Assembly: GCA_951406725.2 (NCBI GenBank)
Contig: OX597826.1
Coordinates: forward strand, 36,890,001-36,954,000
Source of the DNA: Octopus vulgaris
Taxonomy: Eukaryota
Direction: 5' to 3'
Length of the DNA: 64,000 nt
Below, piece after piece: positions 9,517 to 62,031 of this stretch. The notes beneath the pieces are model-generated. The model did not search any database, was not told the origin of the DNA, and saw only the letters and a program-made list of their open reading frames with translations. Position numbers and translations under genes: made by a program. Position 1 is the first letter of the stretch. The number at the start of each line of letters is the position of its first letter.

Positions 9517-9750
9517 GGCGCTGAGCTGGCAGAAGCGTTAGCACGCCGGGCGAAATGCTAAGCAGTATTTCGTCTGTCGCTACGTTCTGAGTTCAAATTC
9601 CGCCGAGGTCGACTTTGCCTTTCATCCTTTCGAGGTCGATTAAATAAGTACCAGTTAAACACTCGGGTCGATATAGTCGACTTAATCCGTTTGTCTGTCT
9701 TTGTTTGTCCTCCCTGTGTTTAGCCCCTTGTGGGTAGTAAAGAAATAGGT
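9517..9750 (+). mobile_element. tRNA-headed SINE family A, full length
   Basis: A-box-like TGGCAGAAGCGTT, B-box GAGTTCAAATTCC, central gtcgactttgcctttcatcctttcg.ggtcga block and tail ...tagccccttgtgggtagtaaagaaatagg. Homologous to 61626-62031 and several fragments. Confidence 0.85.
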
Positions 9751-23804: not shown

Positions 23805-23935
23805 GCGAACGGAGTGGGTTGGAGGCGGTAGAGCGTCGCACAAAATACTTAGCGGTTTTCGTTACTACTTTTACGTTCTGAGTTCAAATCTCGCTGAGTT
23901 CGTCTTCGCCTTTCATCCTTCAAATTTTGGGGTGA
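23805..23935 (+). mobile_element. SINE family A 5' fragment
   Basis: aaatacttagcggttttcgtt...tacgttctgagttcaaatctcgctgagttcgtcttcgcctttcatcctt matches 9550-9630. Confidence 0.7.
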
Positions 23936-24875: not shown

Positions 24876-25280
24876 CTCTCTTTAATCTTTTACTCTTTTA
24901 CTTGTTTCAGTCATTTGACTGCGGCCATGCTGGAGCACCGCCTTTAGTCGAGCAAATCGACCCCGGGACTTATTCTTTGTAAGCCCAGTACTTATTCTAT
25001 CGGCCTCTTTTGTCGAACCGCTAAGTGACGGGGACATAAACGCACCAGCATCGGTTGTCAAGCAATGCTAGGGAGACAAACACAGGCACACAAACACATA
25101 TATATATACATTTATACGACGGGCTTCTTTCAGTTTCCGTCTACCAAATCCACTCACAAGGCATTGGTCGGCCCGGGGCGATAGCAGAAGACACTTGGCC
25201 AAGATGCCACGCAGTGGGACTGAACCCGGAACCATATGGTTGGTAAACAAGCTACTTACCACACAGCCACTCCTGCGCCT
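24876..25280 (-). mobile_element. tRNA-headed SINE family B, full length
   Basis: Minus-strand head ggcgcaggagtggctgtgtggtaagtagcttgtttaccaaccatatggttccgggttcagtccc (A and B boxes), central gccttgtgagtggatttggtagacggaaactgaaagaagccc, internal TA/TG microsatellite and tail ...gactgaaacaagtaaaaga. Homologous to 28073-28443 and 57399-58385. Confidence 0.88.
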
Positions 25281-25281
25281 C

Positions 25282-25332
<51 letters not shown>

Positions 25333-25402: not shown

Positions 25403-25434
25403 TGTGTGTATATGTGTGTGAGCGTATATGTGTT

Positions 25435-26529
25435 GGGAGGTGACGTGAGGTTGTCGCCCCTCAAAGGGATTATGGTGCGGATGGAGAGAAAAACGATCAC
25501 CTATAAGTGGTTCTCGTTAAAAGGAAAAAAGGCCGAGCAGGTGGAAGTTAAAACAGTAAAGGCGCTAAAGGTACGGTCAAAGGAAGTGACATATATAACC
25601 AAAGGAAGGAGATATGAGACGAGGGTCGTCCAATTTAGGACAGGAGAGGAGGCGAGGAGGCTGGCGAGTGTGGCGGTGAAAACAGAGGCAGTAGTGCTTC
25701 TGCCCACATACCTTGAAAGAAAGACTTCCAACGTAAGGGTAAAAACAATCCCACCTGATATAGAAGTGGCTTGGGTGACGCCGGCTGTCCTTGTTGGAAG
25801 TGAAAAGAAAGTGGCTGCCTTCGAGCCACAGAGACGGGGAAGGAGGTTGGAAAGGGAAGACATTGGAATTGATTATACAGACGAAAGAGGAACAACTGGA
25901 GTGTTTGGCAGAGACGGTGACGTTGGGGGGAATTGTGCTGAGAGTGTGGGTAGAGGGCAGGGTACCACGTTATTTTAAATGTGGCCAAAAGGGCCACATT
26001 GGAGCGTACTGCTCTCTGCAGAGGACAATAGCAGAGGAAACAGTTGTAGAGACGGAAGAGAAAAGAGAAGAAGAAAAGACAGAGGGAGGAAAGGAAGAAA
26101 AGGAGAAAGAATGGAGAATAACAGAGTAGAAGGAAGAAGAGAAAAAAGAACACTGAGTGTGATGTGGTACCCCAGTCCTACTCTATCCCATCCAAGACCA
26201 CTCAGACCCACCCTCCCCGTACAGACACCAAACCCACCCACTCCATTTCCCAACAGGAAAAAAAGTAAAAAAAGGAGCAGACACCCCAGAATTTAGAAGA
26301 GGCAGCGAGTGGTGTTGCTCAGTGTGGGGTGAGTAGCACTCTCTTCATATTTTCATTTTCAACTCTCACGCATGTTATCATAATTCTAATTTGTTTTTCA
26401 AGTTCATTTTCATGTCATTCATAACACCATATGTTATTTTTGTATATTTTTAATTATTATATGTCCCCACATGTGTTGTACTGTCCCTTCTATGTAAAGC
26501 CTTTATGGCTCATTTGACGAAATAAAGAA
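25435..26529 (+). mobile_element. ORF1/gag-only non-autonomous retroelement, copy 1 (frameshifted, 5'-truncated)
   Basis: Broken ORF ...VQFRTGEEARRLASVAVKTEAVVLLPTYLERKTSNVRVKTIPPD...VWVEGRVPRYFKCGQKGHIGAYC, with a decayed CX2CX4HX4C at 25971-26012. Followed by an E/K-rich then P/T-rich tail and a T-rich 3' UTR ending AATAAAGAA. No RT or endonuclease sequence. Confidence 0.7.
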
Positions 26530-26540
26530 GCTTGCTTCCC

Positions 26541-28072
26541 GAAGTTTTTGTCGGATGTGTTTGTTTCGCTGCTGGTAAGCATTTTTGCTGTTGCTGAAAA
26601 CGTTGGATTACCATTTGGAATTGTTATTGTTATTTGTTGAACGTTAAAGTTTGTTGTTGAGCATTGTTGAATTATTTCCCGGCTTTACCGAGCAATAACA
26701 AACGGAGAAGGAATTGTTGACCAGTATTTGTTGACCATTGTGGCATTTTATGAACGTTGTTTTGTCAAACTGTGTATAGTCTTTTGGACTAATTTTTGTG
26801 CCCATCCCCCTAACGCGGGTGGGATTTGGAGTTTGTTAGTGAACTGTTGTCCTCTTCAAGAGGAAAATTTTCATTTCCCATTTTTGTCGGAAACTATTTA
26901 ATTTGTGTAATTAACTTGTAAAATTAATTTCAGCCGAAGAATGTCGGTTGAAATTATACATGAGAGGTGTGTTCTGGTAGAGAGCAAGCAAGAAAATGTG
27001 AAAAAGTTTTCGGTGGTTGCCGTGGTGGCAACCGAAAATATCGACATTCCTGTCGATCAGCTGGAAGGTGTATTTAAAAGAATGAAAGTGGAGGGCGATG
27101 ACGTTAAAATATCACCCTATTCCAGTGTGGTCGACACAGAAAACCGGACTGTAGTGTTTAAATCCTTCTGCTCACAAAACAGAAGGTTTCAACACTTCGA
27201 GAAAGAGAAAATTGTAAAATGCCTATTCGCTATATGGAAAGACGTAGCCTATATTGCAAGGGTACGGGCATACAGTACAGTTGAGGTCCGTTTTTCTAGT
27301 GGAAAGGTGGCCCGCGGGCATTCCGTGTGTCCCTTGAAGACAAAGGAAGTGTTACTTCTATCAACATACATGGGAAGGCAGACTTTCCGTGTGAAGGTGA
27401 GAGAAGTACCACCGGAGTGTGATCCGAAGGAGGTGGTGACCGCCTTTTGTTTAACAGGACGGACCGTATAAAATTCTTGCAAATTACATGCTCTGCCCTC
27501 CAGAACTGGGTACCAGCGGAGCATTACAGCAATTGTATAGGAGACGCAGGCAGGAATACCTTCAGGAGGTTTCCGAAAGGGTGGTCGTGGGAGAGAATGT
27601 GGCCCTTAGAGTGCAGGTGGAAGAAAGAAAACCCACCTGCTATGAATGTAGGAAAAAGGGCCTCATTCGCGTGGACTGTGAAACAAGGAAAAAAAGAAAA
27701 GGAAAAGATGAAAAAAATGGCTCAGACACCAGCTCCTTCAGAAAACCCTAAAATTGTCCCCAAACCTGCGCATATACCAGACCCTACACAAGTAAAACTT
27801 ACCACTCCCCCACCAGGTAAGGGAGGTCGCGTTAAGGAGTAAAGGTTCAAACCAGATGGCCGGGTGCCTTTCTTTCAACGCTCCTCATTGTGGAACGCAA
27901 TGACCTACTCAAAATGAAAAATTTTTATTGCATATTTCATCGATTCATTTTTTCATCCAATTGATTTGACATTTTTAAAAGGTAAAAAGATTCTTCACAC
28001 TTTATGTTTGTCTGTCCTTTTTTTGTCCCCTCTCTGGAATGCCTGTATGGCAAATCTATATGAAATATAGAA
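26541..28072 (+). mobile_element. ORF1/gag-only non-autonomous retroelement, copy 2 (apparently full length, frameshifted)
   Basis: 400-nt leader, ATG at 26941, then ...VRFSSGKVARGHSVCPLKTKEVLLLSTYMGRQTFRVKVREVPPE...VQVEERKPTCYECRKKGLIRVDC (knuckle 27638-27679). K-rich and P-rich tail, 3' UTR ending GAAATATAGAA. Flanked by imperfect direct repeats agaagcttgcttccc / agaagcttacttacc. Confidence 0.72.
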
Positions 28073-28443
28073 GCTTACTTACCACCCACGTGATTCCGGG
28101 TTCAGTCCTATTGCGAGACACCTTGGGTAAGTGTCTTATACTATAACCTCAGGCCGACCAAGAAAGAAGCCTGTTGTATATACATATATATATACATGTT
28201 TTTTGTGAGTGTGCTTGTGTGCGTGTCTGTCTGTCTGTCAGTATTTGTCCCCACCACCATCACTTGACAACCGATGTTGGTGTGTTTACGTGTGTTTCGG
28301 TTCCTGTAACAAAAGGGATGGAAACAATAAGTACTAGGCTTACAAAGAATAAGTCCAGGGGGCGATTTCTTCGACTAAAACCCTTTAAAGCGGTGATCCA
28401 GCATGGCCGCAGTCAAATCACCGAAACAATTAAAAGAAAAAAA
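28073..28443 (+). mobile_element. SINE family B copy lacking the first ~25 nt of its head
   Basis: Starts gcttacttaccacccacgtgattccgggttcagtcc and continues to the ...cagcatggccgcagtcaaat...aaaaga tail. Confidence 0.8.
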
Positions 28444-29874
28444 GAATACATATTAGATGTGACATAATATCAGCATAAGAGGTTGTTAGTTGACTCGTGA
28501 GTGCAACTGGTGACACACACACACACGCACACACACACACATGCCACTAATATATGTAAGTATATATGTCTGTATATATGTGATTGTGTATGTATGTATA
28601 TTTTGAAATTCCGTTTAGGCTTAGCAATACGAATAGCCTGGTGTTAGAACTCAATATACATAGGCCTCGGAAAGAAGCGCCAGACGAGTACAACGCTTTG
28701 TAATAATGGCTTCATTCTAACATTGATACAGCTGCAGTAACAAATGCACAAACACTCACATGTACATTTATGCATGTGTGTGTGCGTGCATGTGTGCTTG
28801 CGTATGTGTGTTTGTGTGTGTCTGTGTGCATACGTAGTTTTATTTGTATGCGGGCGGATAAGTGTGTACATATAAGGCTGCGTATGTACACGTTGAAAAC
28901 TTCGTCTTGAAAAAGATTGGAAGAAACATTACATTCTTTAGACAAATATTTTAAAGACAATTTTTGCTGAGAATATAGCCATTGGTTAGTTATATATTAT
29001 ATATAAAAAAAAACTTTCTTACCTGTTTTGTCGCTAACAAACTAGCCTCAGGGCAAACTCAAGTTGAAAGAATATAACATCATTATGTGAGTCTGTATGT
29101 GTGTGGCATTTTGTGTTGTCCATGTGAGTGTGTGTCTTTATGTGCGCTTGCATATATGTGTGTCTCTTTGTGTATGAGTGTGTGTATGTGTGTGTGTGTC
29201 TTTATAATTCTATTTATTTCATTTGATTTCCTTCATAGCCTTTGTTCTTAGCAGTTTTTGTTGAATGTTCATTCTTTTGTATTTGCAGCCTCCAAACGTA
29301 TCAATAAAAAAAACATTACACGAAAACAAGAAAATAACAAACACCGTTGTCCCCAAAATTCCCTTTTATTATACCAAATTCCTCTCTCACAAATGGATTG
29401 TTTCCTGTTTAATTTTGTAACAATAGCCCTAAATAACATGCTTTGAATGAAGCAAAGAAAGAAAGAATAAAAGAATAAGGTAGAAGAAGAAAAATACACA
29501 AAAAACACCTTTTCACAGAAATTATGAAAGCAATGTGATTATACGCTTTTGTATAATTCGTCAGTTATAATACAATATTTCATCATATTGTTGTAACACA
29601 AAAAATATTGATTCTAATAAAACTGATTCTTCATGCAAGTAAATGAAAACTCTTTTTTAATGGAATATAAAACAGAAATGAACTTATGAAAGAAAACAGC
29701 CTAACAGAAATTTTGCAATAAAATAATATAATCAAAGTTGATATGAATCTTTTGAATTGCGCAAGTTCTCATTATTTGGTCAACCAATGTTAATAATGGT
29801 TGCTATCTCTGCATATTTTAACATACAGACTAAAATATCATTTATTTTATTTAAATAAATGAAGATGATGATAA

Positions 29875-30152
29875 CAAACCCAGTTCGAGAAATATGTCAG
29901 AAAAATCGGAATTGACATGAGAGCAGAGATAGCCCCCAAAAATCTGCTCTGCTGGGGACAGAGAGCTAGGATTTTGAGATTGGTACTTGGATGCTGAATA
30001 TCTCACACGTTAGTTAACAACCAAGTATCAATGCTTATAATGTGCGAAAAGAGACACCGTGAGACATCTGACGGCAGGCCGCTGTCCTCTCTCGCAGAAT
30101 CTACCAGAGCAAACAAGGCCGAGCCATGTGAGAAGGAAAATGCTAATAATAA
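29875..30152 (+). mobile_element. RLE retrotransposon 3' fragment (family D3)
   Basis: Decayed QFEKYVRKIGIDMRAEIAP.KSALLGT..RILRLVLGC*, followed by a UTR shared with 1507-1683 and a (TAA) tail. Confidence 0.7.
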
Positions 30153-30235
30153 TGAGAAGAAGAAGAAGATGAAGAACAAGAAGAACAAGAAGAACAAGAA
30201 GAACAAGAACAAGAAGAAGAAGAACAACAACAACA

Positions 30236-30337
30236 ATGGTAATTGCAGTGGTTAAGAGGGAGAGCTACTAACCTCAATATTCTGAGTTCGATTCCAGGCA
30301 GGACCTGGATAATAATAATAATTATAATAATAATAAC

Positions 30338-30394
<57 letters not shown>

Positions 30395-30534
30395 CATAAT
30401 ATCGAAAAATACCTTAGGAATGAGAACCCAGGTTCGAAATTTCCCCAAGACTCCTGATGAAGGCTGTAGAGTATATCAGACGAAACGTTGTGTTAACAGC
30501 AAACAAGATGAGGACAATGTAAATGTAAATAATG
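30236..30534 (+). mobile_element. tRNA-headed short element with internal (TAA)n and a hammerhead-like motif
   Basis: A-box-like TTGCAGTGGTT, anticodon-like loop CTACTAA and B-box GAGTTCGATTCC (30284-30295). Then (TAA)n, a second B-box-like GGTTCGAAAT and a CTGATGA...GAAAC core. Confidence 0.6.
30449..30494 (+). ncRNA. Minimal type I hammerhead ribozyme-like motif (degenerate)
   Basis: Stem I GACTC/GTGTT (1 mismatch), CTGATGA at 30454-30460, stem II GGCTG/CAGAC (1 mismatch), GAAAC at 30482-30486, then GTT. Stem III is reduced to the palindrome AACGTT. Confidence 0.55.
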
Positions 30535-30535
30535 A

Positions 30536-30697
30536 AAGATAGAACACCTACAAAATGTCAAAATTGCTTGGAACTACAAGAATTCTTAGTAAGGTTCTTG
30601 AAGCATGACCAGTAAACAAGTGTCACCTTAGTCTGCTGTATGTGAACAGCTGAAACTTTCCATAATACCCAGCAAAATAAGCTGAGAGTTTTCATTA

Positions 30698-30700
<3 letters not shown>
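30536..30700 (+). mobile_element. RLE retrotransposon 3' fragment (family D2-like)
   Basis: IEHLQ..KLLGTTRILSKVLEA*, then a UTR with accttag...gtgaacagctga shared with 47996-48040. Followed by (TAA)n. Confidence 0.7.
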
Positions 30701-30788
<88 letters not shown>

Positions 30789-31548
30789 TTAATAATAATA
30801 ATAATAATAATAATAATCCTTTCTAATATGGGTACAAGGCCTGAAATTTGTAGAAGCGAGGAAGTCGATTACATCGACACCAGCGCATTCTTAAGTTTGC
30901 GCATGCCATGTACAATTCGTAAATTAATAAACTGAAAAACCAGAGCTTTGGCGATGTCCATCTCTATGTAAAAACACTTGGCGTTTTCCGTGACCTTTGA
31001 CACTAAAATGAACATCATTTGGCATCGTTTTGCTGTAAAATGTTTAAATATCTCTATATCTAGTGCTGTTAAGTGTTCATATTTTAGTGCTTGCCAACCA
31101 TCTGCACCTTTGCCTCTCTCAATCCATCAAAAATTGCATTAGCTGGTCCTGTGGCTTTCTAAAACCATGAATTGTTAAGGAACTTATGTTTTATTCACAC
31201 ATTATAACGTTACAATTTTCACCTCTCTGCAAATTTTGCATTATTTAAGATTTTTGGTCAAGTTGAAGTTCCATGCGCGCTTTTCACACCTTTCCACACT
31301 TCGTTTGTTAGTACTGGATGCCATTTTTACTAACAGACGGACAACGTGCAAGTAGAAGTAGATTCATCACACTTAAGAATTGCCTAATGTTCTTTGTATA
31401 TTTGCTGTAAACAATGGCAGAGTGGTGGCAATGGCCAGTGTCGGGAGCGGAGCAACGAAAAATATGAATTGGGAGGGCTCAGTACAAGTCAGTCGACAAC
31501 CATTTAGTTGTAACGAACTGTATATCGAATAAAATGACAAAGTATACT

Positions 31549-31553
31549 ATCTC

Positions 31554-31647
<94 letters not shown>

Positions 31648-31650
31648 AAT

Positions 31651-31693
<43 letters not shown>

Positions 31694-31852
31694 CTCTCTA
31701 TATATACACAAACACACACACACAAACACACACACATACATATATATATAAATATATATCAATATATGTATCACTATATCTATATATATATATATATGTA
31801 TCTATTTATCTATTTATTTATTTCTCTATCATCTATCTGTTTATATATATAT
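31549..31852 (+). repeat. (TATC)n, (CA)n and (TA)n compound microsatellite
   Basis: Direct inspection. Confidence 0.95.
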
Positions 31853-32476
31853 CTTATGTCGAACGACTTCTATTGCGTGTGGGACGAGTCTGTTTATCAA
31901 CCGAGTCTATCGTGAATATTATCGCGCCTCTTTTCTTGAAACGGGAAGGGAAAGCCGTTTTCATCGTACTTGTGAATATGGCGAAAGAATGTGTATGGTG
32001 GACGCGTCTGAAAGGTCTAGAAACAAACACTTTACTCTCTGGTAAATCTCACATCAGAGAAAGGTGAGAGTAGATAGGGAAGGTTTGTCTAGTGTATGTT
32101 TCAAAAATAGATGGGTGAATGCAGCAAGGATGGCACGTGTGAATGACGGAGCCACATTGAGCATAATCGTATGAACCAGAAAAAGAAAGGGAAAAAGAGT
32201 CACTGTAATGTGTTTTTGCATGACATTATTGCCCGAGGTTACCGTGGTCTTTTCCGTGGGCTTTTCTTTCAACGAATAAACCCAGTCTGCTTCCCATTTC
32301 ACACTATGACATTTCTGTGGTACACGATCCCTATTGATTGGCTTCCCCCCTTTTTTCGCGATCCCTTTTGATCGAAATTCTACCGCTCTTTATTTTCTTC
32401 CTTCCTTCCCAAAAACAAATGCTCGACTTCGTATTTTGTCCCCCTGTGTTCAGCCCTGCGTGGCCAATAAAGAAAT
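31853..32476 (+). mobile_element. Tx1/L1-like LINE, ORF2 C-terminus and 3' UTR
   Basis: YVERLLLRVGRV...VFIVLVNMAKECVWWTRLKG...RKVRVDRE...FKNRWVNAARM* fits the AKxxIWxxR...FxxxW end of Tx1/L1 ORF2. Pyrimidine-rich UTR ends AATAAAGAA. (TATC)n on both sides. Confidence 0.65.
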
Positions 32477-32759
32477 CTATCTATCTATTTATTTATTTAT
32501 CTATCTATTTATCCATCTATTTATTTATCTATCTATTTATCTATATCTTCATCTATCTATCTATCTATTTATTTATCTATCTATATATTTATCTATTTAT
32601 TTATCTATCTATATATTTATCTATTCTATTTATCTATCTATTTAGCTATCAATCTTTCTATTTATGTATTTATCTATCTATCTGTCTGTCTATCTATATA
32701 TTTATATGTCTGTCTGTCTGTTTATCTATCTATGTGTGTGTGTGTATACATGATGATGT

Positions 32760-33660
32760 GTATTGAGGTAAACAGTGGCTGCGCGTATAGTGGTATGTGT
32801 GGTGACGCTATTGAAGATTTGCGTGTATGTGTGGGTGATGGTGTGGTGTGGGTGCTGAGAAATGTTCGGTGCTAGTGTATGTGAAGTGGGAAGGTATTTT
32901 GTGGGTGTGAGTGTAATGGTGTGTGAAGTGAGTAATGAGTTGAAAAATGTGTATGGGTATTTGTATAGTGGTGTGTATGTGGTGAGGGTACCAATGTAAG
33001 CGGTATGCAGGTGTGTAGATGGAGGGGGCAGATGAATGTGGAAGGTATATGAGAATTGGTGTGGGTTGGTGTCAGTTGAAGAACGGTAGTGAGTTGAGCT
33101 CATATGGCGAAAAGGAACGAAGAAATTCCTGTTCAGGGCGAAGGTGGGAGTCCTGGTGGCCCCTGCACAGCGACAGTTCGAATATAGACTGATGTTGTAG
33201 CGAATGGCAGGGAGAGTGGATGTGGGGCGAGACCAGGGTGGCATTGCCGCGTCTGACGTTTCGGAGGTACTCCGCGAACCGGTCGGCCAAGCGGTGTCCC
33301 CTTTGACCAATATACAGGGATGGACTGAGAGAGCATGAGATATAGTAAGTGACTTTACTAGAGATGCAGGTAAAGAAATCAGTGACGTGATAAGGACGGT
33401 GATGGGTGCCAGTAAAGATGGTGGTGTTGGAGAGGTAGAGACAGGTGCGACAACGAGTGAGAGCAGGGGAAGGAGCCAGGCTGTGAGGCAGTGGTAGGAA
33501 AGACTGGAAAAGGCGGTCATGCTTATTATAGGATCGTTGGAAGGAGGGAAGAGGTAGGAAGATGTGCGAGGTGTAGGACTCTGACTGGTGTCGCCGGAAG
33601 GCTCGGAGAGTGGTGCGTTGGAGGGCAGAGTGGGGTGTGGTAGGGGAGGGGTGGTTCCGT
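32760..33660 (-). mobile_element. Penelope-like element fragment (Cys-rich linker and GIY-YIG endonuclease)
   Basis: RCRTCLYLSNTTIFTG...VTDFFTCISSKVTYYISCSLSPSLYIGQRGHRLADRFAEYLRNVR...VSPHIH...RPEQEFL...PYELN matches the PLE GIY-YIG domain (VIY..C..C...YIGxT.R.L..R..EH...E...LN). Followed by a CA-rich 3' region. Confidence 0.85.
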
Positions 33661-33667
33661 CTGTGAC

Positions 33668-33755
33668 GCATTGGGTAAGTGCTTTCTATCATACCACTGG
33701 GCCAGCAAATACCGTATGACTGAATTTGGTAAAGGGAAATTGCACGGGTGCCCAT

Positions 33756-33760
<5 letters not shown>
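33668..33760 (+). mobile_element. Decayed central fragment of SINE family B
   Basis: tgggtaagtgctttcta...gggccagcaaataccgtatgactgaatttggtaaagggaaattg aligns with 57475-57560. Confidence 0.55.
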
Positions 33761-33797
<37 letters not shown>

Positions 33798-34222
33798 TAT
33801 ATGTATATGTGTGTGTGTGTTTGCATGTACGTATCCATTACGTATATATGAATCTATCTATCAATATATTTTTTCTATCTCTCTCACTCTCTTTCTCTCT
33901 CCCTCTGTATATATATATATGTATATAATCATACACATATATGTGTATATATACATATATTTATGTAAGTATGTATATATGTATATATATATGTGTGTAT
34001 ATTTCTGTGCATGTGTGTGTGTGTGTGTTGAGGGTGAAACCTCGGGTACGCGCTTGTGTTTATAAAAGTATGTCTGTGTGTGTACTTCTGACTAAATATG
34101 TATATTTCAAAATACCATCACCGGTGTGCTAAAATATACATTTCAAATGCGTACAATGACCATTCTAATGGTTTTGCACTTAAAACCATAAACAAACATA
34201 GACACACACACTCACGCACATA

Positions 34223-40299: not shown

Positions 40300-40510
40300 A
40301 TTCTTTTATTCTTTTACTTGTTTCAGTCATTTGATTGCAGCCATGCTGAAACACCACTTTTAGTCAAGCAAATCGACCCCAGGACTTACTCTTTGTAAGC
40401 TTAATATTTATTCTATCAGTCTCTTTTGCCGAACCGCTAAGTTACGGTGACGTAAACGCATCAACAACAGCTATCAAGCGATGGTGGAGGGTCAAACACA
40501 GACACACAAA
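40300..40510 (-). mobile_element. SINE family B 3' half
   Basis: Matches 24890-25100 (cttgtttcagtcatttga...aatcgaccccaggactta...gaaccgctaagt). Confidence 0.8.
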
Positions 40511-40626
40511 TATATATATATATATATATACACAAGACATTTATATATATATACAAGACATATATATATATATATAAAACTAATCCATTGTACTAAAAAC
40601 TAATCCATTCTTGTTGCTTCTTTCTC

Positions 40627-43778: not shown

Positions 43779-44370
43779 TCTTATATACTTTCCATTAAAA
43801 AACAAAGTGGTTGCAACTGATAAGAACGCAGAATCACGTGAGCATCAGACGTGGAGAAGTGATTGGAGAAAAAGCGTGAGAAAAGGACGGGAAGAGTAAT
43901 GGAATGAGGAGAAGCAGGCAAAGTCGAGGGTGAGATGAAGGGAAAAGATTAGCTGAGAGGTGAGTAAAAGCACAGGAAAGAGTCTAAAGAAGTATGAGGA
44001 GGCGCAGAGGTGGAAGGAAAATGTTCATTTAAACCTGTCGGCTAAATGGCGCCGAGTTCGAATATAAGATATTGCTCCTTTCGTTTCTTCGCGGAAGTGG
44101 TTCAATGAAGCGCTGCATACGGATAAATCTTTAATGGAATGGTCTGTAGTTGTAAAATTGTTTGCGACAGTTTGGCCGGACATACGTGTTAATATACTTC
44201 GAATATGATCACGAAAGCGATCAGCTAGGCGTTGGTCTGTTTCTTCAATGTAAAGAACGCCACAAAGCTTGCATATAATGCAATATATAAGGTTACACGA
44301 GGTGGAACAGGAATTTTGAGTAATATCATATTATTTCTTGGGCTCTATGGTGGTGGATATATTGTTAACG
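43600..44370 (+). promoter_or_regulatory. Candidate host-gene promoter or first exon
   Basis: Locally CpG-rich, non-repetitive block with TCACGTGA (43834-43841), AAATGGCG (YY1-like, 44044-44051) and GCGGAAGTG (ETS-like, 44091-44099). Ends in a donor-like G|GTATGT at 44370/44371. No long ORF. Confidence 0.35.
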
Positions 44371-47771: not shown

Positions 47772-48072
47772 GCTAACCTGTCGATAGATATGACAGGTTA
47801 GCTTGGGAGGTTAAGCAGTTGTGGTCGATGAAAAAGGTGTTAGTAGCACCAATAATTCTCGGAGCCCTGGGAGCAGTGAGTAAAATTCTTGAGAAGTACA
47901 TGGAACAAACAGGGGCTGCAATAAGGGTGGAGCACTTGCAGAAAACAGCATTGCTGGGAACCGCTCGAATACTCTGGAAGGTGTTCGAAAAATAAGGGGC
48001 ATTACCTTAGTTCACTGGTAGTGAACAGCTGACACCGTAGTACATATCCATCATTAGAAGCTGTGCAAAGAC
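47772..48072 (+). mobile_element. RLE retrotransposon 3' fragment (family D2)
   Basis: DRYDRLAWEVKQLWSMKKVLVAPIILGALGAVSKILEKYMEQTGAAIRVEHLQKTALLGTARILWKVFEK* (stop 47993-47995), short UTR, (TAA)n on both sides. Confidence 0.85.
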
Positions 48073-51194
<3,122 letters not shown>

Positions 51195-52351
51195 TAATAA
51201 TAATAATAATCCTCATCATCATCATTGGATGGAATTTATAAACATTTATTGCTTCGCTACGCGCAACTCCACATATCACATGACTCTTAAGACCACAGTT
51301 GCAATATTCAATGGAGCAACTGCGGTCAGTTATATCGTTGACTTTCAATAGAGTACTTGTTATGATTTGCAATCAGAAAATAGCTCAAACAATGTGTTAT
51401 ATAATAAAACAAGAGAAAAAATCAAGTCTACTATTGAATTAATGAATGTACACTATTTCCCTAGAAGATTGCATTTATCGTCATACACTCGCAGTCTCGG
51501 TAAATTCACTCTAGCCAGTCCGTTATCTCTGTATATACCTCGCTTCTTTCGAATGCTCGATAATAAAATTGCATTTATCATATTCTATCTCATAAATATA
51601 CAGAGTAACACTGCAGAAATGAAACTCACTGCACGCTCCACCAGAATAACACTGTTAATGTATAAAACAAAATATATACAGGAATACTTTATTACACGAG
51701 GAATGACACCGTGCATAGTCATAAAAACTTAGATCAAGATGGCTGAATCATATAAATTAGTTTTTTTAACCGCAGTATGCACATGAACACAATTGGTGGT
51801 ATTTTGCTTCGAAAGGCATTTGTTACAACAATATTATGCATATTTAATGGTATGAATTACGTAACTGCTGTGCTTACTGAAAACCCTTTATAGAATCATG
51901 AACTCGCAAAAGAGTTAGCAATTATCATCCCAGTTAGCAAAATATCACTTTCCTGTAATATATTTGCATGATTGTAATTGCTTCTCACTGCAGTGAAATC
52001 CCCTTCTCTTTCTCGCTCTCTCTTCCCAATTCATACTTGTTCTGCTGATACAAGAAGCCATCTTCTTAAACATGACTACCTGAAATGTATGTAACCTTTA
52101 AATGATTGAATGCCCAGAAAAATTAGACAATCATTTTTAAATACAAATTCCTTGATCTTCTATTAACCTCTCCACATGTCTCATTTCTGTTCTCAATGTA
52201 ATTTATTCGCATCCCCTTTAATCTCACGTTTGGAGCTATATCAATGATAACTCTATTGTAGAACAGAAAATGCACTCTGCATGTGTGCAAACATACATGC
52301 ATACATACATACATACATATGGAGATTACTTTCTCTGTTCTGCAACAGATT

Positions 52352-54157: not shown

Positions 54158-54370
54158 AAACTGAAATAGAATTAATTAATATGATTATTCTGCCTACACT
54201 GGTTCCATAATAGCATATCTTTTGCAACAGATACGAGCAAACAGTCTGACAGACAACCTTTAAAACTGAAATTGAATGAATAAATATGATTACACTGCCT
54301 ACACTGATTCCATGAGAGCATATCGTTTGCAACAGATATGGACAAACAACTTGACAGACAACCTTGAAAA
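54158..54370. repeat. Tandem duplication, two diverged 105-bp units
   Basis: ctgaaat at 54161 and 54266; shared atatgatta..ctgcctacactg.ttccat...agcatatc.tttgcaacagata...gacagacaacctt. Confidence 0.85.
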
Positions 54371-57300
54371 TAACTATAAACATACATTTATGATCCGATA
54401 TAGTTAGAGTGTAAATTCTGACCATAACACCATGTCATTCTTGGATATAAATATAGAAATAAGGAATAACACATAAGTGATCGGACTCCAAACAGACTGT
54501 TTGATCATTTATGGCTTTTACCTTATTTCATCAAGACATATTATGTAGTAAAATCGATAAAAAACAGTAGAGAGAACTTACTTTACTCTTTTGCACTGAT
54601 TTTAACACATACAGCCTCACAATACATCAACACCCAAATCAAATGGTGTATAATGAAAGGTGATTATATCTTCAAAGATGAAAAATATTTGAAGTAATAT
54701 TTCTCTTTAAGCGAGATGTTATATTTTTATCTTGCAAATAATCTTTAAACAAAGAAATCTTACGTGCAGAAAATTTTAGTTAACAATTCTTTCTGAAGTC
54801 AACAGTTTGTGGGGAGGGGCTGGTCAACTACATCGACCCCCCACCCACCAGCACTCAGCTCTTACTTATTTTCTTGACTCAAAAGGGTGAAAGACAACGT
54901 CGTTCTCGGTAGCATTTGGGCTCAGAACGTAAAACTGAGTTTTAGTTGATAATGAATTCTCTAATAGCTAAGTAGAACCGGTCGTAGAACCATGAAATAT
55001 AAAAATCCACAATCACATATACCACAGATGCAGCATTTATTTAAATACACGAAGCTCTCATTGTATAGGGCGATAAACATACTTTCAATATAAATGGATA
55101 TATCATTATAAAACTCATATGAAAGAAGGTATCATGCTTCACACCTAGATACAAACTCATATGTGAAAAATCTCCTCAACGACAAGAAATCACGAACCAG
55201 TAAACAACAAAATTTACTTCAAACAACGAATATAATATAAAAAAAAATTAAACCTGGAATTCATAAATTTTTATGAAAGTTATGTCCTTTCGTATAACTG
55301 TTTCACTGGAGACAGAATTACGATACACTCGTTGGTTGATCATGCATCGATATTACAGAACCATCTAGTTGAGGCATTTAGGAATTTTTCTGCACTTTAG
55401 TGTTCCAAGTCAAAGACCGAAAAGAACTTTTACAATATATGAAAAAAAAATTCCATACAACATAATATATTCTATAGAGCACACATAAATACGTATAGAC
55501 ATATACATGTTTATTACTATTTAGAAATTTAATATTGCAATATATATAATAGAGAGGTAATAAACGCCAGAGATATGAATGCTGAAAATGTAGCCCCAAG
55601 AATGATTTGCACAAATTTATCTCTCGATCAAGATCACACGATTGCTGCCTTCAAATAAATATTTCGTTTATTGTGGAAATTAAACCATTTGAAATAACAT
55701 TTCACATCATAAAACTACACCGAAATGATTTTTGACTTTGGTGCAAAGCCATCATTTATAGAGAAGGAATCGTGAAATTAACAAATGTTGTCCATATTGC
55801 TGTAAATAGCATTAGCAATGTAGGCAAAAAGAATTACATTTAACATGGAGTAGAAATCAGCTTGTCTATTTAAATCTGCAGGAACTATTTTCACGTCACT
55901 TTCTAGTAGTTTAAATAGCTTTGCTTCATATTTTAAAAGAAACCAATCATAATTTCATTTAATGTATCTCAGAAACAGATTTTCAATTTTGCAGCAGTTT
56001 TATTAACACCACTCCGCTATGATGTATGAAGAGAAATTTTCAAAAAAAATATTGAATAGTTTTTCATTAGATTTTATTTATTGTAAGGCCAAAGCATTGC
56101 AATATAATTTATTCACTGGCTTCTACTCATCATTCTATTATGGGATTCCAATACCCTTTCTTATTTTTTCCTTTTATTTGCTAATATTTTTCTTCCCCTT
56201 TTTTCTTTTACATTTTGCATTTGCGATTTGTTTGTATTTTTAAGGGATGTCGAAATATTTTCAGCTTGGCCAGCGATTTAAGTTTAAATACTCTCAAAAC
56301 ATCAAAATGTCAGAAAATTCACTGAACCATTACAATGATCAATTTCTTTTTTAAGTGATACATTTTAATTATGATTTATCAGTGAGCATTTCTCCTACGT
56401 AGCAAACTGGAAAAAATATGTACAGGAACATATTAAAAAATATATTATAAAACAAGAAAAAAATATCATACACGTACACAGAAGAGAAAACCTCCATCGA
56501 AATGTTATTATTACCAACATCAACTTCCCCAATTCCTGCTTCTAATGAAATGAAATATGCAGAAACTGATAGAATGTGTATTTTTCCTCTTATTTTCGGT
56601 ATTTATTTGATTCCCTTTATTGTTTATTTATTCAAAAATGGATGCAATATTTAGGTGCAACTACTGCATATTAATTGGTTTAAAGGAAATTTATGCAATA
56701 TTTCATACATTTCCCATTAGAAATGGTAAGAGAACTTTTCCAATTTACAATGGTGTTAGAAATTTTTCAATTTTAGATGGCGCTACCAATTTCAGAATTT
56801 GCAAATGATAAAACATTATATTTCTATTTATGTAATATAAAAATATTATTAACAAATTTATGCTTTTGATTCATAAAAAATAGTTTGATATTAGCATGTT
56901 TAAATTATGAAAATTGCTTCAACTTGTATTACATGAAGCGATTTTCAGCAGATTTTCTGTTTGGAAATATTTTATAAATTCCTTAATCTGAGAATAATAT
57001 AATAAATGTTGCAATTTGATGATGGTATGTAATTATTCTGTATTTCTTTTGTAATTGCTCTTTAATTTTATAATGTCCGCAGAAGTCCGATAATGAAATT
57101 TAGTATTTATAATTATTGAGTTTCGTATCGAGTCATTTGGAAACTATTGGCAGAGTTTCTGATCGTGATATATCAGTAATGAGAGCAGCTTAAGAATTAT
57201 ATCCTTTGGATATTGTTGCAAATACAACATTTGTCTGCAAAAAAATATTATGCTCCGCTGTAGTAAAAAACAAACAAACAAACAAAAAAAACACTATAAT

Positions 57301-57398: not shown

Positions 57399-58122
57399 AG
57401 GAGCAGTCGTGACTGTATGGTGTGTATGCTTCCCAAACCACATGATCCAGAGTTCAGTCCCACTGCGTAGCACCTTGTGCAAGTGTCTTCTACTATAGCC
57501 TCGAACCGACCAAAGCCTTGTGAGTGGATTTGGTAGACGGAAATTGAATGAAGCCCATCGTATATGCGTGTGCATATGTATACATATATGTGTGAGTGTG
57601 TATGTATATATATATATATATATATATACATACATATATATGTGTCTATAGATACATAGTTGTGATACCTGTGCCGGTGACACATAAAAAAGCACCATCC
57701 GAACGTGGCCGTTGCCAGTGCAGCCTCCACTGGCTTCTGTGCCGGTGGCACATAAAAAGCACCATCCGAACGTGACCGATGCCAACCCTGCCTCGAATGG
57801 CTTCTGTGCCGGTGGCACATAAAAAGCACCATCCGAACGTGGCCGATGCCAGCATCGCCTTGACTGGCTTCTGTGCCGGTAGCACATAAAAAAGCACCAA
57901 CCGATCGTGGCCGATGCCAGACCCCTCTGGCACCTGTGCAGGTGGCACGTAAAAAGCACCCACTACACTCGCGGAGTGGTTGGCGTTAGGAAGGGCATCC
58001 AGCTGTAGAAACACTGCCAGATCAGACTGGAGCCTGGGGCAGCCCCTGGCTCCCCAGACCCCGGTCGAACCGTCCAACCCGTGCTAGCGCGGAAAACGGA
58101 CGTTAAACGATGATGATGATGA

Positions 58123-61085: not shown

Positions 61086-61625
61086 TTGACGATGAAAGTA
61101 TTTTCATTTAAATACCACTGACATAATATCAACATTGAATATTCTATTCTGTTCAAATTAATATTTCTATTTAATAAAATTTAATTCAGTCGACCGGGAC
61201 GAAACAGTCTAAACCAGCCAGTTTCAAAACGTGATAAACAGTGGTATCTTAAGTCAACCATTCTGTTTAGCTGACCCAATTACATTATTTATAATATCCC
61301 TGTGTTTTGGTTTCGGCTGACAGACGTAACTAAGACGGCGAACTGGCAGGCTCGTTCGAGCGTCGGATGAGCTCTGCGCTCTTTTCAATAAGGTCCTCAA
61401 CAACTTTGCCTCTCATCCAGTCACGATCAATAAATAAATTACTGGTTCAGCACTGGGTAGTAGCCCCTATCTCTCTTTCTCTCTTTTACTCTCTCTCTCC
61501 CTCATTTAGTCTCTCTTTTTCTTTTCCATTCTCTCCCTCCCTCTCTCTCTCTCTCTTCTTATTACACTGTATCTCACTGATTCGTCTTGAGTATTACTTC
61601 AACGGTACACGTGTCTATAAATATT

Positions 61626-62031
61626 ATTTCTTTATTGCCCACATGGGGCTAAACATAGAGGTGTGAAACATGGACAGAGAAAGGAATCAAGTCGCATCGA
61701 CCCCAGTGCGTAACTGGTACGTATTTGATTGACACCGAAAAGCTGAAAGGCAAAGTCGACTTCGGCGGAACTTGAACTCAAAACGTGAAGACAGACGAAA
61801 TACCTATTTCATTACTACCCAAAAGGGGCTAAACACAGAGAGGACAAACAAGGACAGTCAATCGGATTAAGTCGATTACATCGACTCCATTACTTAACCG
61901 GTACTTAATTTATCGACCCCGAAAGGATGAAAGGCAAAGTCGACCTAGGCGGATTTGAACTCAGGACGTAACGGCAGACGAAATACGTCTACGCATTTCG
62001 CCCGGCGTGCTAACGTTTCTGCCAGCTCACC
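61626..62031 (-). mobile_element. SINE family A dimer: full monomer (61804-62031) plus 5'-truncated monomer (61626-61803)
   Basis: Both monomers align to 9517-9750. The junction reads ...gtagtaatgaaatag|gtatttcgtctg on the minus strand. Confidence 0.85.

Follow-up and report, generated by a model that had tools for sequence, protein, structure and literature searches.

Non-long-terminal-repeat retrotransposons integrate by target-primed reverse transcription, in which the target is chosen by the endonuclease and is inherited by passengers; among LINEs (long interspersed nuclear elements), those of the L1 group are the textbook example of relaxed elements, which recognize poly(A). We analyzed a 64-kb window of Octopus vulgaris DNA (contig OX597826.1, positions 36,890,001 to 36,954,000), which is the scope of all DNA-level counts given below (128 kb counting both strands). 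It holds two retroelements with open reading frame 1 (ORF1) and no ORF2, called here elements 1 and 2, a 5'-truncated LINE piece, and copies of two families of short interspersed elements (SINEs), A and B. ORF1-only nonautonomous LINEs are known as HAL1 (L1), HeT-A (Jockey), and Ag-Sponge (CR1) (PMC5786205, PMC5753468). As those sources present them, they resemble elements 1 and 2 in retaining ORF1, lacking ORF2, ending in a LINE-type 3' end, and needing an autonomous relative; they differ in their mammalian L1, Jockey, and CR1 origin, whereas the octopus elements appear to combine an RRM plus CCHC ORF1 with a structured, non-poly(A) end and one SINE-head site.

Crocodilian Tx1 families prefer other transposons or microsatellites, their SINEU passengers share those targets, and tandem SINEU-3 copies enclose a duplication (PMC4494074). 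This Tx1-Mar/SINEU system is like the octopus locus in that tandem copies lie around a duplication, and like the arrangement proposed for octopus in that Tx1 lineages target repeats or microsatellites and passengers inherit the target; in it, however, a DNA transposon serves as target, poly(A) SINEs with a small nuclear RNA head are the passengers, and the account mentions no LINE found with the SINEU-1 3' end (PMC4494074), whereas the octopus locus shows insertion into a SINE head, passengers with an ORF1 of their own, and a shared tail. The maize pairs (ZmSINE2/3 with LINE1-1_ZM) and the Chlamydomonas pair (SINEX-3 with L1-1_CR) are alike in that an L1-group LINE and a SINE share a hairpin 3' end of ∼45 to 80 nucleotides (nt); they belong to plants and algae, and compensatory changes are reported for them, whereas such changes are not established in the octopus tails. 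L1-tailed SINEs made up 3 of the 58 LINE-tailed SINEs in the 2012-2013 survey and came from grasses and Chlamydomonas, and its table contains no animal pair with an L1 or Tx1 tail (PMC3472496, PMC3747384). In UnaL2/UnaSINE and ZfL2-1/ZfL2-2, a short 3' stem-loop serves as the handle for ORF2p, the role proposed for the octopus tails; these are L2-clade systems in which it was shown by assay, and in zebrafish L2 the stem is exchangeable and the loop decides which enzyme recognizes the RNA, whereas the octopus loops differ between classes of element (PMC4176376).

For O. vulgaris itself, 13 recently active L1-Tx1 families have been described, and 893 of 900 recently active SINE families are listed as unclassified (PMC13282606); octopus CORE-SINEs have been named OR1 (PMC4824008) and OR2 (PMC4758252), and SINE A and SINE B were not matched to either name. 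Among the matches listed by full-text literature searches, there was no report of the system described here; these families may be present in Repbase, Dfam, subscription journals, or the majority of supplements, which lay outside those searches. Each ingredient has a precedent, and what is gained is the way in which they are combined and not a novel mechanism.

The reading that we consider probable on balance is that related L1-group lineages share an ancestral tail, and that SINE A follows one of them and the target-specific ORF1-only elements, or half-LINEs, follow another. The most useful new fact of the analysis is a tandem insertion at a single site (Table 1). Elements 1 and 2 both end in GAAATA and then enter the same 16 nt; element 2 is flanked by this 16-nt repeat on both sides, and element 1 has the 3' copy only. 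A 13/16 match to the duplication occurs at only three places on the two strands: both of the junctions and the head of the intact SINE B copy (at 25283, minus strand). For any single named site, the chance of such a match is 2.2e-6. Of the six rows in the SINE B comparison, two (58 kb and 40 kb) lacked the SINE head and were left out. To judge from its sequence, element 2 was retrotransposed as a unit with target duplication, and two families with 35% identical proteins lie at a single, identical base position in the SINE B head. An origin of the pair by tandem duplication of one of them in place was ruled out, as elements 1 and 2 show no DNA alignment beyond short A-rich patches.

The ORF1 of element 2 runs from an ATG at 26941 to about 27748 and is broken, with about 320 nt between the end of the knuckle frame and the tail. 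Element 1 retains one decayed CCHC knuckle at ∼25974-26012, for which the zf-CCHC match is weak (E 0.089). The two ORF1 products align at 35% identity over 107 residues (E 2e-17) and at 36% over 59 residues (E 5e-8), the shorter match spanning the CCHC-like knuckle. From 25433, element 1 is 59% identical over 100 residues to protein P0050, which has an RRM_3 match (E 0.002) and is the sole further ORF1 relative in 5.8 billion proteins; no homologue was found among longer proteins, and among those of similar length there was only P0050. The last ∼60 residues of P0050 are unrelated to the ORF1-only elements; they resemble what we take to be an ion-channel segment, and P0050 may be a chimera with a host gene. 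A search of the PDB by sequence gave nothing, the best Foldseek match had an E value of 0.012, and Atlas matches were without a name or below threshold. A model of the element 2 ORF1 (three sequences, mean pLDDT 44) places a β-α-β-β-α-β unit at residues 65 to 147, the best matches of which are mostly RRM domains (top Z 8.2, root mean square deviation 3.8, 83 residues aligned); we regard this predicted RRM-like fold as suggestive only. To our knowledge, an RRM plus CCHC ORF1 is not exclusive to Tx1. Such a type I ORF1 does fit Tx1, as that type is described (PMC5203782). No ORF2 remnant was found in element 1 or 2, and tblastn with two full ORF2 proteins matched 31852-32165 only. By their coding sequence, elements 1 and 2 are real nonautonomous ORF1-only elements.

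The LINE piece holds the C-terminal end of ORF2 alone. It is 62% identical to residues 999 to 1109 of the 1,111-residue protein P0045 (E 2e-25); its search against 1.84 billion proteins gave 42 matches, and the cluster of the best match includes P0045. The named relatives come from the octopod Argonauta hians. P0045 carries Exo_endo_phos (endonuclease), RVT_1 (reverse transcriptase [RT]), and zf-RVT (C-terminal, zinc-binding) domains, and the endonuclease and RT domains of the LINE are read from it. Among solved structures, the closest to P0045 is human L1 ORF2p (E 1e-50), with R2 proteins at E 4e-22 or weaker; the 10 structure matches listed are L1 and R2-type proteins only. This 62% identity to a protein that has human L1 ORF2p as its nearest match of known structure places the LINE piece in the L1 group. 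The search matches included no named Tx1 reference sequence. The C-terminal motif resembles what we take to be the fish Tx1 form, and this likeness, together with context, makes Tx1 membership likely. For the piece, it was not possible to delimit a target duplication. TATC-type arrays make up 0.7% of the window (strict pattern), and the piece, a single copy, sits between two of them. Upstream, a short nonrepetitive stretch (31420-31546, plus strand) with the end AATAAAATGACAAAGTATAC abuts the CTAT array upstream of the LINE and is possibly the end of another element within the same array.

SINE A has the tail of this LINE. No internal gap is needed to align the last 48 nt of the LINE with the SINE A tails, of which there are three, and 28 of 49 columns are invariant. 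LINE-SINE A tail pairs score 49 to 58.5, the background maximum is 37.5, and none of the 8,300 background windows, the reference set for all tail pair scores, reaches as high; a profile built from SINE A alone retrieves the LINE tail at E 1.2e-6. The likeness is limited to the tail, the pattern of stringent pairs, in which SINE and LINE are alike in 3' terminal sequence only. The tail homology of LINE and SINE A, as judged from the alignments, is real, solid, and far beyond chance, and this part of the first-pass annotation, which was made from the sequence alone, stands.

The 9.5-kb SINE A copy is 88% identical to the left monomer of the 61.8-kb dimer, and each is followed by GGT, with which the SINE A right monomer starts; in sequence terms, the tail of the two probably occupies an internal position in a SINE family of dimeric form. 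At the dimer junction (61804-61805, minus strand), the right monomer begins ∼43 nt into the head, right after the left tail, and the dimer may be the family-level form, as the 9.5-kb copy also precedes GGT. Two more SINE A fragments, without the tail, lie at 23843-23920 (plus) and 54863-54931 (minus). The dimer has a possible 7-nt AT-rich target duplication, and none could be defined for the 9.5-kb copy. Neither of the two SINE A loci lies in a SINE B head or in a TATC-array context. Neither ARAGORN nor Rfam gave a tRNA match for the heads of SINE A and SINE B, in which box-like A and B motifs are visible by eye.

The ORF1-only elements probably carry a more distant version of the same tail, as judged from sequence profiles. 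The six aligned ends have in common TTTGTCC, CTRTGT, AGCC, TGG, and a terminal GAAAT(A). No background window scores as high as the tail of element 1 against that of element 2, and, whichever of the three SINE A tails it is compared with, the element 2 tail scores above all 8,300. With a covariance model of LINE plus SINE A, element 2 is the best nontraining match, over the whole 49-position length (E 0.028 in 37.9 kb), and nothing in the first 26 kb scores as well; with the sequence-only model, element 1 (E 0.15) is the first match outside the training set and element 2 has an E value of 0.62. A profile of the two ORF1-only tails plus the LINE retrieves all three SINE A tails (E 0.014 to 0.14). 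Element 1 is tied to the LINE/SINE A tail mainly via element 2, by these sequence scores; the nonautonomous nature of both elements, claimed at the outset, stands, and the claimed tail relationship is probable for the ORF1-only elements, though weak for element 1 taken alone.

These scores bear on a different account, in which the ORF1-only elements come from another LINE clade with an RRM and zinc-knuckle ORF1, their tail likeness is coincidence or distant convergence, and the LINE pairs with SINE A only. It would agree with the weak cross-group scores of the LINE plus SINE profile (E 0.43 and 0.96 for the ORF1-only tails) and of the reverse direction (E 2.1 to 6.6, ranked after one unrelated match), with ORF1 searches that yielded no named homologue, and with the low confidence of the model behind the RRM match. 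The matches nevertheless cover the whole model in sense orientation and fall exactly at the element ends, for which the duplication provides an independent definition, and the spacing from TGTCC to TGG is equal in element 1, element 2, and the LINE, and we regard this account as quite improbable. Separately, an internal GTCTG..TTTGTCCCC tract of SINE B (28229-28255, plus; 40489-40511, minus) has a weak match (E 0.8 to 5) to the 5' portion of the shared tail.

TABLE 1 Coordinates of the retroelements, their tails, and their insertion sites in the window
Feature	Positions	Strand	Basis or remarks
SINE A copy, left-monomer type	9522..9747	+	Tail GGGTAGTAAAGAAATA, then GGT
SINE B copy, uninterrupted head, empty-target reference	24883..25283	-	Sequence comparison
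Element 1, ORF1-only retroelement, 5' part missing	25433..26524	+	Frameshifted ORF1, RRM-like region; ends GAAATA
Hairpin AGCC-TTTAT-GGCT, element 1	26498..26510	+	Pair probability 0.89-1.00
16-nt target duplication between elements 1 and 2	26525..26540	+	13/16 vs 28068-28083; 13/16 vs intact SINE B head
Element 2, ORF1-only, apparently full length (1,527 nt)	26541..28067	+	400-nt leader; ends GAAATA
Hairpin TGCC-TGTAT-GGCA, element 2	28040..28052	+	Pair probability 0.80-1.00
Second copy of 16-nt duplication	28068..28083	+	Runs on into SINE B head
Rest of target SINE B copy	28084..28448	+	70-78% match to other SINE B copies
TATC/TATT-type array, 5' side of LINE piece	31547..31851	.	Tandem-repeat listing and context check
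5'-truncated L1-group (Tx1-like) LINE	31852..32476	+	Last ∼110 ORF2 codons, two frames; 302-nt 3' untranslated region; shared tail
LINE hairpin region	32452..32465	+	Predicted GCC/GGC pairing, 6-nt loop
ATCT-type array, 3' side of LINE piece	32477..32733	.	Tandem-repeat listing and context check
SINE A dimer, right monomer	61625..61804	-	Begins within head; terminal tail, perfect GCCC/GGGC stem
SINE A dimer, left monomer	61805..62029	-	Tail internal

The first-pass annotation had described the six ends as TGTCC, a 4-base-pair stem with a 5-nt loop, and a "AATAAAGAA-like end," with the outer pair changing between A-T, T-A, and G-C. The six 13-mers were located as claimed, those of elements 1 and 2 as in Table 1, that of the LINE at 32453-32465, and those of SINE A at 9723-9735 (plus), 61817-61829, and 61637-61649 (both minus). 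TGTCC directly precedes the stem in five of the six; the terminal 61.6-kb monomer has TCACA there. The common terminus is GAAAT(A) and not the one described: its AGAA lies within the 16-nt target duplication in both ORF1-only elements, and element 2 reads ATATAGAA. All six ends are present, and, since the 9.5-kb copy and the left monomer are 88% identical, they amount to at most five lineages, in which covariation was examined.

In folding calculations, the hairpins of elements 1 and 2 are stable in context. The LINE stem as first drawn has a pair probability of ≤0.10; a GCC/GGC hairpin with a 6-nt loop is preferred, with a probability of 0.63 to 0.70 in a 60- to 100-nt context and 0.03 in 150 nt. 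Pair probability for the SINE A hairpin is variable (0.00 to 0.63). It would be possible to suppose that the tail is shared by descent and the hairpin is incidental; conservation would then concern the primary sequence, in the form of a U/G-rich tract and of an A-rich end with a use in 3' processing or priming, and the enzyme would make few demands on structure. Measured against shuffles, none of the tails has a significant folding advantage (none beyond z = -1.68), the claimed stem reaches at most 0.29 in the LINE, the 9.5-kb copy, and the terminal monomer, and an alternative TGTCC/GGGCA helix, rejected in its own right as no better than shuffles (136/500), fits 80% of cells in LINE plus SINE A. 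Set against these are the two stable ORF1-only hairpins, the retention of four pairs in five of the six ends, compared with both outer pairs at 26 of 112 CC-N5-GG sites in the window, and the confinement of the SINE A-LINE match to the tail, as in stringent pairs; we give the incidental-hairpin explanation little credence. A hairpin in the tails is plausible, as far as predicted folding goes.

The evidence for covariation depends on the alignment register. When the six ends are aligned on the stem, RNAalifold gives a 4-base-pair hairpin in which two pairs show double changes, and the covariation score is reached by 7 of 500 shuffles; with this tool, 5 to 25% of unstructured related alignments reach such a score. 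When the same ends are aligned AGCC on AGCC, no structure is predicted. We prefer the AGCC register because flanking identity is higher there, at 9 to 12/16, than in the stem register, at 4 to 7/16, in all eight comparisons. An additional base follows AGCC in LINE and SINE A, and the stem of the SINE is shifted by one position; the four LINE/SINE A tails contain no double change, and the only surviving paired change is one A-T/T-A between elements 1 and 2. On the alignments, then, the cross-family A-T/T-A/G-C changes are mostly a one-base register slip, and covariation as first claimed is not supported by these few lineages.

The same results weigh on the original proposal that one Tx1-type ORF2p, through a covarying stem-loop, mobilizes the LINE, SINE A, and both ORF1-only families. 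A hairpin of three or four pairs can be drawn in all six ends, the stem register gives its RNAalifold hairpin and covariation score, and the profile of ORF1-only tails plus LINE retrieves every SINE A tail. The signal is gone, however, in the register that the flanks favor, the LINE and SINE A tails show no double change, and unstructured related alignments can score equally. Targets also differ between the classes, as do the loops: TTTAT and TGTAT in the ORF1-only elements, and TGCGT, CTTGT, CTTTT, and CATGT in LINE/SINE A, three of these four ending in GT. The tail shared by SINE A and the LINE survives from this proposal; a single machinery for all is unlikely, as the ORF1-only elements differ in insertion context and loop.

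We therefore return to related lineages with a common ancestral tail, for which the following sequence of events may be proposed. Related L1-group LINEs, probably of Tx1 type, would have had an ancestral 3' end of ∼48 nt with TTTGTCC, CTRTGT, AGCC, a GCC/GG hairpin, and GAAAT(A). SINE A would have acquired this end from a lineage near the LINE piece of the window and would be copied by the ORF2p of that lineage via target-primed reverse transcription. The ORF1-only elements would be half-LINEs that lost ORF2 but still carry ORF1 together with a diverged form of the tail; for their mobilization they would rely on another relative, a sequence-specific one that cleaves the SINE B head at one site. 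The 16-nt duplication made at each insertion would restore the target site, and so a tandem array of element 1, duplication, element 2, duplication, and the rest of SINE B could form. The hairpin probably aids recognition and would have been retained by a one-base slide, not by proven compensatory change. We argue for more than one enzyme because the loops differ between the classes and the loop sets specificity in zebrafish L2.

Several observations weigh against this reading. The 5' half of the target head was not found before element 1, so that a deletion or an altered 5' junction must be assumed there. The site reads T/AAGAA, which is similar to what we take to be a generic L1-type cut site, and could be a hot spot. 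A single LINE copy in a TATC array is no proof of microsatellite specificity. Protein searches yielded no intact-LINE ORF1 for comparison. When element 1 alone is compared with the LINE/SINE A tails, 7 to 214 of the 8,300 background windows score as high, and its E value with the covariance model is 9.7. The analysis concerns a single locus, and no further octopod DNA copies were found in public viral, prokaryote-genome, and metagenome collections. In these, the LINE protein scan gave nothing in viral contigs and, in metagenome contigs, 48 pattern matches of which none was confirmed; matches to the tail pattern (0 viral, 5 prokaryote-genome, and 7 metagenome) were rejected as chance, all 12 loci being unlike the window except for one 29-nt patch, and were excluded from every count.

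The window consists of AT-rich animal DNA, and its tandem-repeat listing has 127 rows. ARAGORN found no tRNA genes in it, and among 150 listed of 275 Rfam matches there were only microsatellite-driven microRNA matches. Another non-LTR element, which we take to be of the R4/Dong type, is present as tandem pieces at 48044-51210 (plus) and 876-1507, 95% identical over 1,257 nt; it has RT and zf-RVT domains, each piece ends in an AAT array, and its tail is unrelated. Decayed frames with a GIY-YIG-like motif at 33072-33857 and 44025-44330 (both minus; no Pfam match for the first, E 0.07 for the second) are possibly Penelope-like elements. Minisatellites occur at 57669-57960 (67 nt by 4.4 copies) and 54158-54370 (105 nt by 2 copies).

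A more specific form of the reading, which we put forward tentatively and hold as possible rather than probable, is an octopod Tx1-type radiation with strict 3' recognition, in which the half-LINEs would be SINE B-specific parasites that enter the head at a single base and stack in tandem, and SINE A would ride a sister LINE by means of the common ancestral tail. If so, one SINE family would be a passenger (A) and another a target (B), and a partner could be named for some octopus SINEs. In SINE A, an animal SINE would have a tail derived from L1/Tx1, a combination missing from the published table of 58 SINEs (PMC3747384). ORF1-only elements that home to a SINE head, were that specificity to hold genome-wide, would extend the known targets of Tx1-type endonucleases by one class, and the natural tail variants would help to map what ORF2p reads. 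The animal case, if true, would favor the view that strict recognition is an ancient condition in the L1/Tx1 group.

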